The translations under genes and the position numbers were made by a program. A DNA stretch of 64,000 nucleotides from Escherichia coli. Lineage in GTDB: Bacteria; Pseudomonadota; Gammaproteobacteria; Enterobacterales; Enterobacteriaceae. A model generated the notes under the pieces. It was not told where the DNA came from, did no database searches, and saw only the letters and a program-made list of their open reading frames with translations. The stretch is from assembly GCF_003334815.1 (NCBI RefSeq), contig NZ_QOWO01000005.1; one strand, 5' to 3'. Below, piece after piece: positions 36,521 through 53,969 of this stretch. The stretch's first letter is position 1, and the number at the start of each line of letters is the position of its first letter.

Positions 36521-36602
36521 TGCCTGATGCGCTACGCTTATCAGGCCTACGAGTTCAGTGCTCTACGTAGGCCGGATAAGGCGTTCACGCCGCATCCGGC
36601 AT
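36521..36602. repeat. BIME/REP palindromes between cynR and codA
   Basis: gcctgatgcgctacgcttatcaggcctac...gtaggccggataaggcgttcacgccgcatccggc. Confidence 0.8.
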
Positions 36603-36629
36603 AAACTAAGCTCGCTGTAACCCAGTCGT

Positions 36630-39314: not shown

Positions 39315-39486
39315 GTAGGCCTGATAAGACGCGTCAGCGTCGCATCAGGCATCTGAGCATGGTGTCGGATGCGACGCGAGCGCCTTATCCGACCTACGGT
39401 TCAGGTCCGTAGGCATGATAAAACGCGTCAGCGTCGCATCAGGCATCGGCACACAGTGCCGGATGCACCGCGCGACGCATCCGACA
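39315..39486. repeat. BIME: several REP palindromes between codB promoter region and prpE 3' end
   Basis: gtaggcctgataagacgcgtcagcgtcgcatcaggcat...gtcggatgcgacgcgagcgccttatccgacctac... repeated. Confidence 0.85.
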
Positions 39487-44072: not shown

Positions 44073-44112
44073 GTTGTCCTCGTCATTGTTATCATTTGTA
44101 GGGTCGAGATTG

Positions 44113-44392
44113 TTGTCGGATGCGACGCTATGCGTCTTATCCGACCTACAGTTCAGTTCACCCCGTAGGCCTGATAAGTCGCGTCAGCGGCGCATCAGGC
44201 ATCGGTTGTCGGATGCGACGCTATGCGTCTTATCCGACCTACAGTTCAGTGCACCCCGTAGGCCTGATAAGTCACGTCAGCGGCGCATCAGGCATCGGTT
44301 GTCGGATGCGACGCCATCCGTCTTATCCGACCTACAGTTCAGTGCACCTCGTAGGCCTGATAAGTCGCGTCAGCGACGCATCAGGCATCGGC
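44113..44392. repeat. BIME: three tandem ~93-bp REP-containing units inside the prp operon (prpB-prpC spacer)
   Basis: Three near-identical copies of gtcggatgcgacgctatgcgtcttatccgacctacagttcagtgcaccccgtaggcctgataagtcgcgtcagcggcgcatcaggcatcggtt. Confidence 0.9.
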
Positions 44393-48341: not shown

Positions 48342-48587
48342 CTACGTAATCAACCTGATTTGCCGAATCACGGCCATCGGCGATGATAGCCCCCGTAATG
48401 CGTGGTCCTTATTTCCGATAAGTTTACTTGAGTCTTTAGCTTCCCATTTCAGCCCACTCTCCCCTGTGTGGGCTTTTTTCATTGGTCTGCCCCATCCTGA
48501 ATAGCCAAACAATGGCAATGTTCCACTTTGCAGGGATGATAATAAGGGGATCTGATTCAGAAGAGTTTTGAAAAGTTGGACCGCCAT
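48342..48587 (-). CDS. yahM: Small uncharacterised protein
   Basis: ORF track 48342..48617; start at internal Met (MAVQLFKTLL) gives 81 aa; no recognisable motif; weak call. Confidence 0.5.
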   Translation of the reverse strand: MAVQLFKTLLNQIPLLSSLQSGTLPLFGYSGWGRPMKKAHTGESGLKWEAKDSSKLIGNKDHALRGLSSPMAVIRQIRLIT

Positions 48588-48999
48588 CGAGGCCTCGAAC
48601 CCCGTACCATACAACAATCCTGGTTGTCGTCTGCTCTTCCTGATGAGCTAATGGCGGTTTTTGATATGAGCCTTACAGCATATTTTCTGTCAGGCTTGAG
48701 TGCGATGCGTAAGATACAGAAAAGACCCCACGCAAACATGATGGAATTATGATTTTTTTCATATGAATGTCAACCAACACATTCACAAAACATCTGCATG
48801 AGATCATTTTTTATACACCGCATGGCTGCGAAACCACTACTGGTGCTTTTTTAAGCGAAGTGTCGCCGATCACAACAAAATATCGGCGAAAAAAGAGATG
48901 GAATGCCAGTTGGCATACAGATATACAGATGAAATGATTACCTGCATTGCGATTCACTCTCAGGTGGAATAACAACTTGCAGGTGGAACCCTTTCTGAA

Positions 49000-49815
49000 C
49001 TAAAGAGTGTAGCGGATTTTAACGTGCTTATTTACAGGATAATATCTGTCACCTAATTCCTGCACTCTATTAGATATCCATTCATTTAATCGCGCATCAT
49101 CTCTGTATGTTTTTACGTCCAGAACAGAGAGCAATAACATCACCAGTGATTCAGGAAAAACAGGGTAGATATTTTTTAAGTGTAATAATAATCCATGCGC
49201 AAGCGCCTGCTTAATGGGCGCGTCTGTCTCCGGAATAGACGACATTTCGCGAAGCCATTTTTCCACATGCATACACTCTTTCCCTTTAGGGAAAATTCTC
49301 AGCAAAGGCATATGGTATTCAAGAAGAATACATTTGCAATCTGTTCGCACTGAATCGATAAACTGCACTAATTTCTTAAGCCCGGTAAAGCGTCCAGCCT
49401 GCACGTTTGCTTTAATATCAAGAAACGCATCATCCTGGTCATATACCCAAACTGTCCCTTTTTGATTTTCAAGTATGTGAAAAACAAACTTAACCGGGTG
49501 ATCAGGGTAATCCATCCAGTCATAAAATCCAGGGAAATCATTAAACTGCACATTTATGGTGAGTGCGTTATCGTCTGACCACTCACAGTCTCGTACGGCA
49601 GCCATGAGATGAATGAGTTTGTCGTCATCGACTAAATCATCACGACAATCATAAGGATAATCATAATATTGTTTAATCAAAACCTTGAATATATCGACAC
49701 AGGAAACCAGGGAGCTTTTGATATCCTCTGGTAACTGATTGTTTTTAACCGTATTAAGTATGCTTTGTTGCGTATATGGCATCAAATTATTGTGCGGAGC
49801 TTTTAATGATATCAT
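49000..49815 (-). CDS. yahL: Uncharacterised 271-aa protein in an AT-rich segment
   Basis: 271 aa ORF; visibly lower GC than neighbours; no motif I recognise. Confidence 0.7.
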   Translation of the reverse strand: MISLKAPHNNLMPYTQQSILNTVKNNQLPEDIKSSLVSCVDIFKVLIKQYYDYPYDCRDDLVDDDKLIHLMAAVRDCEWSDDNALTINVQFNDFPGFYDWMDYPDHPVKFVFHILENQKGTVWVYDQDDAFLDIKANVQAGRFTGLKKLVQFIDSVRTDCKCILLEYHMPLLRIFPKGKECMHVEKWLREMSSIPETDAPIKQALAHGLLLHLKNIYPVFPESLVMLLLSVLDVKTYRDDARLNEWISNRVQELGDRYYPVNKHVKIRYTL

Positions 49816-49984
49816 CGCGATCTCTCTTAAATAAAAATAAACGTCGCAGATAATAAAGCTCTGATTAAACCAGGCACTATCAGAAATCGCTCATAACTAA
49901 CGTGTGAAGTATTGTGTACTGGAGGGCGTTAATTTAACAATTTAAATTTACGTTATAGGTTTTACTGCTACTTTGATATTATTT

Positions 49985-50018
49985 CGCTCTCCTTAACTAA
50001 AAAGTTAAGTGGAGAGCG
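49985..50018. other. Near-perfect 14-bp-stem hairpin between yahK and yahL
   Basis: cgctctccttaact-aaaa-agttaagtggagagcg; about 40 nt downstream of the yahK stop; no flanking U-tract. Confidence 0.4.
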
Positions 50019-50057
50019 AAGTTAATATGTTAAACCACAAGGTATTTATTAATTTTT

Positions 50058-51107
50058 TCAGTCTGTTAGTGTGCGATTATCGATAACAAAACGATATTTC
50101 ACATCACCGCGCAGCATTCGCTCATAGGCTTCATTAATTTGATCGGCCCGAATCATCTCTATATCAGCCACGATGCCATGTTCGGCGCAAAAATCGAGCA
50201 TCTCCTGAGTTTCTGGAATGCCGCCAATCATAGAACCGGCTATCGCACGGCGTTTCATGATCAGGTTGAAAACTTCCGGCGATTTATGCGGTGTCGCAGG
50301 CGCACCAACCAGCGTCATGGTGCCATCACGCTTCAGCAAGGTGGTAAAATCGTCGAGATTATGTGGCGCAGCTACTGTATTCAAAATGAAATCGAAACTC
50401 TTCAGATGAGCCGCCATCTCATCGGCATTGCGTGAGTTAACAACTTCATCGGCCCCCAGGGCTTTTGCCGCTTCGCGTTTTGCCTCAGAAGTGGTAAATG
50501 CCACCACATGTGCCCCCATCGCGTGGGCCAGCTTAATCCCCATATGTCCCAGACCGCCGATGCCGACCACGCCCACTTTTTTACCCGGCCCGGCCTGCCA
50601 GTGACGTAGCGGCGAATACGTGGTGATCCCTGCACACAACAAAGGAGCCACCGCCGCCAGCTGCTCTTGCGGGTGACGAATACGCAGAACATATCGCTCA
50701 TGAACGACGATCTGTTGTGAGTAGCCGCCCAGAGTATGGCCCGGTTCGTCCGGCGTCGGCGAGTTATAGGTGCCGGTCATGTGATCACAGTAGTTTTCCA
50801 ACCCGTCTTCACACTCTTCGCAATGTTTACAACTGTCGACAATGCAGCCGACACCGACCAGATCGCCCGGCGCATATTTTTCTACCTGATCACCAACGGC
50901 TACCACACGCCCCACAATTTCATGACCCGGCACGCAGGGGTAAACCGTCCCCGCCCACTCGGAACGGACCTGGTGGAGAGCGGAATGGCAAACGCCACAG
51001 TAAGCGATTTCGATTTTGACATCATTCGGTCCCGGTTCACGCCGGGTGATATCCATCGGTTCAAGTGGTTGTTTAGCGGAATATGCACCAACAGCTTTGA
51101 TCTTCAT
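50058..51107 (-). CDS. yahK: NADPH-dependent aldehyde reductase (zinc alcohol dehydrogenase family)
   Basis: 349 aa; GHEIVG zinc motif, GIGGLGH Rossmann motif. Confidence 0.9.
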   Translation of the reverse strand: MKIKAVGAYSAKQPLEPMDITRREPGPNDVKIEIAYCGVCHSALHQVRSEWAGTVYPCVPGHEIVGRVVAVGDQVEKYAPGDLVGVGCIVDSCKHCEECEDGLENYCDHMTGTYNSPTPDEPGHTLGGYSQQIVVHERYVLRIRHPQEQLAAVAPLLCAGITTYSPLRHWQAGPGKKVGVVGIGGLGHMGIKLAHAMGAHVVAFTTSEAKREAAKALGADEVVNSRNADEMAAHLKSFDFILNTVAAPHNLDDFTTLLKRDGTMTLVGAPATPHKSPEVFNLIMKRRAIAGSMIGGIPETQEMLDFCAEHGIVADIEMIRADQINEAYERMLRGDVKYRFVIDNRTLTD

Positions 51108-53873: not shown

Positions 53874-53958
53874 AATGCCTGATGCGCTACGCTTATCAGG
53901 CCTACAGATTCTTGCGCCATTCGTAGGCCGGATAAGGCGTTCACGCCGCATCCGGCAT
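53874..53958. repeat. BIME/REP palindromes between yahG and yahI
   Basis: gcctgatgcgctacgcttatcaggcctacag...gtaggccggataaggcgttcacgccgcatccggcatgaac. Confidence 0.8.
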
Positions 53959-53969
53959 GAACATGTAGG

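Follow-up and report, generated by a model that had tools for sequence, protein, structure and literature searches.

Protection of Rho-dependent RNA 3' ends by stem-loops is reportedly a hypothesis of Peters et al. 2012. The closest class described since is that of Dar and Sorek 2018 (PMC6061677), in which all but one of 144 Rho-dependent transcripts end precisely right after stable stem-loops without a U-tail, with a mild enrichment of C over G downstream and with trimming that depends on PNPase/RNase II. The palindrome analysed here, which lies downstream of the Escherichia coli gene yahK, shares with this class a stable stem-loop lacking a U-tail, a 3' end a few nucleotides after the stem, bicyclomycin-sensitive read-through, a downstream bias of C over G (in the K-12 type) and a location at a weakly expressed gene. 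It differs from the class in the shortness of its C-rich tract, part of which B2-type strains lack, and in a stem that is long (14-16 pairs, ~22 with an A/U extension) and whose upper half is rich in A and T; furthermore, exonuclease trimming was shown for the published class, whereas at yahK it is proposed by likeness.

Two other kinds of hairpin are comparable in part. With intrinsic terminators the yahK hairpin has in common a terminator-like size and energy, a position just past a stop codon and a 3' end 5-7 nt after the stem, but it has neither a U-tract (2 U in 8 nt) nor an upstream A-tract, and it lies in a Rho-sensitive region. REP/BIME elements are likewise extragenic palindromes, which in transcripts impede 3' exonucleases and confer stability on the mRNA upstream of them; however, they are GC-rich, conform to a consensus and number in the hundreds per genome, whereas the yahK palindrome is unique and unrelated to them in sequence. 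Its membership in REP/BIME was ruled out by the presence of one copy per genome in 5089 genomes. Since the pattern at yahK matches that of Dar and Sorek, the hairpin is best read as the protective stem-loop of a Rho-terminated transcript, and the palindrome thus probably acts as RNA, in the yahK sense, at the 3' terminus of the yahK message.

Position and fold of the palindrome

The palindrome was located in the window, by which we mean the whole stretch of 64,000 nucleotides that was analysed. Coordinates were converted to those of MG1655 by the relation that window position x corresponds to MG1655 343933 + (50058 - x). The features that define the locus are the following:

50058..51107, minus strand: yahK coding sequence, NADPH-dependent aldehyde reductase (from the list of open reading frames and the MG1655 annotation, b0325)
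49985..50018, minus strand: core stem-loop in the yahK 3' UTR, equal to MG1655 343973-344006, with the RNA-sense sequence CGCUCUCC-AC-UUAACU UUUU AGUUAAGGAGAGCG (from sequence, fold and single copy)
about 49976..50028, minus strand: extended helix with A/U-rich flanks (AUAUUA..UUCG / CGAA.UAAUAU), ~22 pairs with two bulges
49000-49815, minus strand: yahL coding sequence (from the list of open reading frames and the MG1655 annotation)

Read on the plus strand, the hairpin is CGCTCTCCTTAACT-AAAA-AGTTAAGTGGAGAGCG (window 49985-50018), in which a left arm of 14 nt, a loop of 4 nt and a right arm of 16 nt form 14 pairs and leave a 2-nt bulge, TG on the plus strand and AC on the yahK-sense strand. 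It lies 39 nt 3' of the yahK stop and 169 nt 5' of the yahL start, in an interval for which the MG1655 record carries no annotated feature. The RNA was predicted to fold with -17.1 kcal/mol from the plus strand and -17.5 kcal/mol from the minus strand, values matched by none of 200 dinucleotide-preserving shuffles on each strand (z = -6.1 and -5.8, respectively). A 76-nt context folds with the extended helix, at -24.0 kcal/mol on the minus strand and -25.0 kcal/mol on the plus strand. The original prediction, made from the letters of this DNA, of a strong hairpin with a 14-bp stem downstream of yahK is borne out by the sequence, by a fold z-score of about -6 and by the distance of 39 nt from the stop codon.

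No T-run follows the stem on either strand, the tail being AAATAATATC in the yahK sense and AAGTTAATAT on the other strand; the first 8 nt past the stem contain 2 U on the sense strand (tail AAAUAAUAUC) and 3 U on the other, and a terminator scan of 49500-50400 returned 0 sites. The U-rich tract of 7-8 nt that comes straight after the GC-rich stem of an intrinsic terminator is therefore missing, and the hairpin, as in the class of Dar and Sorek, is not followed by a uridine-rich tail. Both the tails and the scan agree with the earlier statement that this is not a classical intrinsic terminator.

In absolute numbers the window has no shortage of equally stable hairpins: of 31983 segments of 36 nt across it, 98 fold at -18 kcal/mol or below, and REP elements account for many of these. 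What sets the yahK hairpin apart is its surroundings, the 200 bp with the least GC in the region (~31%). Among the remaining hairpins of the window, those with the lowest energies (-20 to -22 kcal/mol) belong to clusters with sequences of the type GCCGGATAAGGCG... and GCCTGATAAGACGCG..., at these positions:

16959-17152, 19165-19360, 36571-36606, 39319-39354, 44111-44390 and 53927-53962: REP-type palindrome clusters

A further observation concerns the other side of the stem. A 19-codon open reading frame, MLNHKVFINFFSLLVCDYR, runs antisense to the yahK 3' end (window 50027-50086, plus strand), and a GGAG within the hairpin arm lies 12 nt 5' of its start. A gene with its ribosome-binding site in the stem was considered and rejected: all four of its four substitutions are nonsynonymous, and the frame is shifted in the ZH193 type, a common lineage. 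The 19-codon frame is probably not a gene.

Transcript ends and the Rho-sensitive region

Published Term-seq data place RNA 3' ends directly at the hairpin. Supplementary file 1 of Adams et al. 2021 (PMC7815308) lists a 3' end at MG1655 344013 (+) for cells in LB at OD 2.0, with a mean of 1132 reads, and another at MG1655 344011 (+) for cells in M63 at OD 0.4, with 745 reads. The flanks printed for both ends are identical to the minus strand of the window, and for the other strand the tables of the same study give no 3' end close to the hairpin. The features added by these data, together with the tract discussed below, are:

49978 (= 344013) and 49980 (= 344011), minus strand: mapped steady-state RNA 3' ends, 7 and 5 nt past the closing G-C pair of the stem
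49942 (MG1655 344049 +), minus strand: peak of a Rho termination region (Adams et al. 2021, Supplementary file 2)
49902..49928, minus strand: C-rich, G-poor tract CGCCCUCCAGUACACAAUACUUCACAC, a candidate Rho-loading (rut) segment

The steady-state 3' ends thus have a stable stem-loop (-17.5 kcal/mol) immediately upstream, at 5 and 7 nt. Mapping of 3' ends had been proposed as a check on the palindrome, and in the published Term-seq the ends do occur at the hairpin, on the yahK-sense strand. Together with the Rho region 43 nt downstream, these ends favour one of the options that had been offered for the palindrome, that of an RNA-stability or 3'-end element.

Both ends carry the label 'orphan' in the published table (PMC7815308). 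None of the four supplementary files of that study contains the word 'yahK', so no 3' end was assigned there to yahK in any condition, and the TERMITe and SMRT-Cappable-seq tables have no entry for the yahK 3' locus. The Term-seq signal at the hairpin is near the low end of the dataset of Adams et al. and no end was called in LB at OD 0.4; because of this, the 3' end itself received no Rho score or intrinsic-terminator score. The ends probably belong to yahK transcripts.

The peak of the Rho region lies 43 nt downstream of the hairpin and is bicyclomycin-sensitive, with a Rho score of 3.61 (p = 1.8e-5) that is based on few reads (PMC7815308). Reads upstream and downstream of it numbered 32 and 24 without bicyclomycin, and 83 and 225 with bicyclomycin (PMC7815308). 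Read-through therefore rises under inhibition of Rho in the published data alone, at low read counts and with a downstream window that spans yahL, and we regard the support from this rise as moderately strong. As the 800-nt downstream window spans the AT-rich yahL, the effect of bicyclomycin could also reflect new transcription that is unmasked instead of read-through.

The base composition past the hairpin differs between the K-12 and B2 types. C exceeds G in a tract 55-85 nt past the hairpin, and the 30-nt window at MG1655 344064 contains 11 C and 3 G. Over the first 90 nt past the hairpin the ratio of C to G is 17:9 in K-12 and 13:13 in the B2 type, and alignment places an 11-nt deletion inside the C-rich tract of the B2-type genomes, of which there are about 1000. 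The yahK-yahL spacer of the B2 type also carries about a dozen SNPs.

We propose the following sequence of events, modelled on the published class. RNA polymerase would pass the yahK stop codon and transcribe through the hairpin, after which Rho would load on the untranslated C-rich, G-poor RNA just past it and terminate diffusely in the yahK-yahL spacer or early in yahL; Rho would accordingly act downstream of the hairpin and not at it. The 3'-to-5' exonucleases, which are PNPase and RNase II in the published model, would then trim the RNA back until halted by the stable stem. The expected outcome is a defined 3' end with a tail of 5-7 nt and a yahK mRNA shielded from further decay, so that the stem-loop may prolong the life of this mRNA.

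The alternative that survives best is that the hairpin is itself a weak, non-canonical intrinsic terminator, which dislodges the polymerase at the A/U tail (AAAUAAU), perhaps with help from NusA/NusG, and for which Rho is a mere back-up. The 3' ends at 5 and 7 nt past the stem lie at about the canonical release distance, the tail consists of A and U throughout and would form a weak RNA-DNA hybrid, and mixed or transitional terminators are discussed by Dar and Sorek 2018 (PMC6061677). In at least two relatives, Salmonella bongori and an Enterobacter species, the yahK homologues end in hairpin-plus-T-run terminators, which makes a decayed U-tract conceivable at this locus. Hairpin-driven release in E. 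coli, however, normally requires a U-tract for efficiency, and such a tract is missing here; the first 8 nt hold just 2 U, the terminator scan was negative, and the bicyclomycin-sensitive read-through is called right at the site. On balance, release by the hairpin itself is unlikely. Another conceivable source of the 3' ends is RNase III, which could cleave the long stem.

The listing of the ends by Adams et al. bears on a second alternative. They appear in the '5' UTR of yahL' table as 'upstream ORF, -163/-165, yahL', and by the rule of that study such ends were retained only where a mapped start site lies 21-200 nt upstream (PMC7815308); some of the RNAs may therefore start elsewhere than at the yahK promoter. 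A transcript from the last ~200 nt of yahK or from the spacer could then end at the hairpin, either as the product of premature Rho-dependent attenuation of yahL, which is AT-rich and probably foreign, or as a small stable RNA from the yahK 3' region. The promoter-like hexamers that such a transcript would use are present in weak form only, e.g., GTGAAA-15-GATAAT with a start near MG1655 343922, whereas no Cappable-seq start site maps to the plus strand between v3 coordinates 343676 and 344175 and a standard promoter scan found no promoter near the hairpin. Moreover, the genomes without yahL keep the hairpin, and a scan of 2 kb against Rfam 15, judged by E-value, gave chance matches only, the best being mir-87 at 19.5 bits against a gathering threshold of 49. 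A search of the literature, including reports on Hfq, ProQ or bicyclomycin, found no report of a yahK 3' UTR RNA. A yahL leader or short RNA is thus an improbable source of the ends, and the protective stem-loop of the yahK transcript is the reading that we carry forward.

Distribution, natural alleles and the yahL polymorphism

Of 5426 complete E. coli genomes, 5089 have the palindrome, at a single locus and in one copy per genome. An absence of transcript ends and of conservation had been named as the findings that would speak against the original prediction, and both are contradicted, by the Term-seq ends and by this distribution. A search for the palindrome elsewhere in the genome, also proposed with that prediction, revealed no second copy; within the window there is none with up to 3 mismatches, and the phage collection and viral contigs contain none. 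Thirteen plasmid matches carry the same chromosomal sequence and comprise large E. coli records from laboratory cell cultures and chromosome-sized records; we read the large plasmid records with the palindrome as F-prime-type. A metagenome scan from which the E. coli flank was excluded returned one contig, in which an IS1 end stands directly against the stem of this same locus. A mobile, repeated or MITE-like element was therefore ruled out by the single copy, by the lack of phage and viral matches and by the identity of the locus in the plasmid and metagenome matches.

Among the matches listed for yahK homologue loci of other genera, which are distant genera, none has the palindrome, and the closer yahK relatives outside E. 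coli have another gene context. The palindrome is thus confined to the yahK 3' flank in Escherichia. YahK proteins are 96-99% identical among E. coli; the next relatives are 85-91% identical (Franconibacter, Pseudescherichia, S. bongori) and stand in different gene contexts, and homologues of 80-83% identity are found in Pseudomonas and betaproteobacteria. As judged from these comparisons of sequence, the patchy distribution of YahK suggests horizontal spread.

Two IS1 junctions were seen at the hairpin. In strain SCAID WND1-2022 an IS1-family junction lies in the hairpin loop and yahK is replaced (2531-2545 of the extracted locus), and in the metagenome contig a second, independent junction places the IS1 terminal repeat against the base of the stem (1-50). 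This could reflect a target preference or coincidence.

The E. coli records fall into four natural forms of the hairpin:

3952 records: K-12 form, with the 2-nt bulge
547 records: PMV-1 form, with equal arms and a 2x2 internal loop
133 records: perfect 14-bp stem
about 411 records: perfect stem with a C-to-U change in the flank that lengthens the stem (ZH193 type), a count derived from the class of 90-95% identity, in which ZH193 alone was inspected

The sense RNAs of the four alleles, ended at the mapped 3' end, fold with -19.6 to -28.7 kcal/mol. All alleles fold strongly on both strands and neither strand is favoured. The stem varies by indels only, and no stem substitution was seen among the alleles, so that no covariation signal is obtainable. 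Template switching at quasi-palindromes can yield such indels in the absence of selection, and the allele changes, being of this kind, are therefore no proof of selection. In appearance the alleles resemble quasi-palindrome 'correction', from the bulged stem to the perfect 14-bp stem, to which the C-to-U change in the ZH193 flank adds another pair. The records sampled suggest that each allele is tied to a particular spacer haplotype.

A divergent Escherichia lineage, in which YahK is 97% identical and the gene order is the same, carries yahL together with a hairpin of the K-12 form, and the bulged form with yahL therefore looks ancestral. The 65-nt extended hairpin of this lineage shows 0 changes against ~9 in the rest of the 245-nt spacer; with ~2.4 changes expected, 0 observed and one outgroup, the conservation of the hairpin relative to its flanks is not statistically significant.

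The gene yahL is a clean presence/absence polymorphism of 835 bp (window 48987-49821), made up of the coding sequence and flanks of 13 bp and 6 bp. The B2-type genomes PMV-1, ZH193 and AVS0285 lack it and keep the hairpin, and the junction, GGTGG|CTCTC, has no obvious flanking repeat. Because the divergent Escherichia lineage has yahL, its absence is probably a deletion. The edge of the indel is 164 bp from the hairpin. This distance, and the retention of the hairpin in genomes without yahL, speak against the suggestion that the palindrome is a boundary element beside the low-GC yahL segment; of the original interpretation, the parts that took the hairpin for a non-terminator and a possible RNA element held, and the boundary part did not.

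A role at the DNA level, as the operator of a dimeric regulator, a cruciform or a boundary signal beside the low-GC segment, would suit the near-perfect dyad symmetry, the location in the region's 200 bp of highest AT content and the holoenzyme binding found nearby by genomic SELEX (though with its peak inside yahL), but it is very unlikely given that the site has a single copy in E. coli and recurs in no genome, that the 2-nt insertion in one arm between common alleles shifts the spacing of the half-sites, which a rigid dimeric operator would tolerate poorly, that the yahL indel edge is 164 bp away and that the sole strand-specific evidence is at the RNA level.

The SELEX peak itself, for the RpoH, RpoF and FecI holoenzymes, was reported inside yahL (Shimada et al. 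2017, PMC5493296). It corresponds to window ~49550 (old MG1655 coordinate 343660), and the AT-rich yahL attracts RNA polymerase in vitro. On the far side of yahL, xtpA (b4845, a putative transcriptional regulator) is annotated at MG1655 345252-345434, overlapping the start of yahM, and should correspond to about window 48557-48739 on the minus strand. In that neighbourhood Adams et al. call a strong Rho region inside yahM, at 345585, and list an RNA 3' end at 345390 (PMC7815308).

Meaning for yahK and for protective stem-loops

Two further roles of the hairpin can be imagined in which it does more than shield the end of the yahK message. One would be to form the 3' terminus of a discrete short RNA whose start lies near the end of yahK; the other would be to serve as the structured portion of a gate, dependent on Rho, that controls read-through into the AT-rich, variably present yahL. 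Taken jointly the two are improbable; if either were true, the level of read-through or of stability would depend on whether the allele is bulged, has the internal loop or is perfect.

As a protective stem-loop, the yahK hairpin is a further and so far unannotated example of a well-described class, for which the raw 3'-end data are already public, and it alters no concept. A transcript end that elsewhere is just an 'orphan' in a published table, and is unannotated in genome records, would thereby be assigned to yahK, which serves in the metabolic engineering of aldehydes and alcohols. Among protective stem-loops that lack a U-tail at Rho-dependent ends, the hairpin would be one more clean, single-copy and non-REP case, and its natural alleles, with their graded stem strength, are usable for testing how stem stability relates to mRNA 3' ends.
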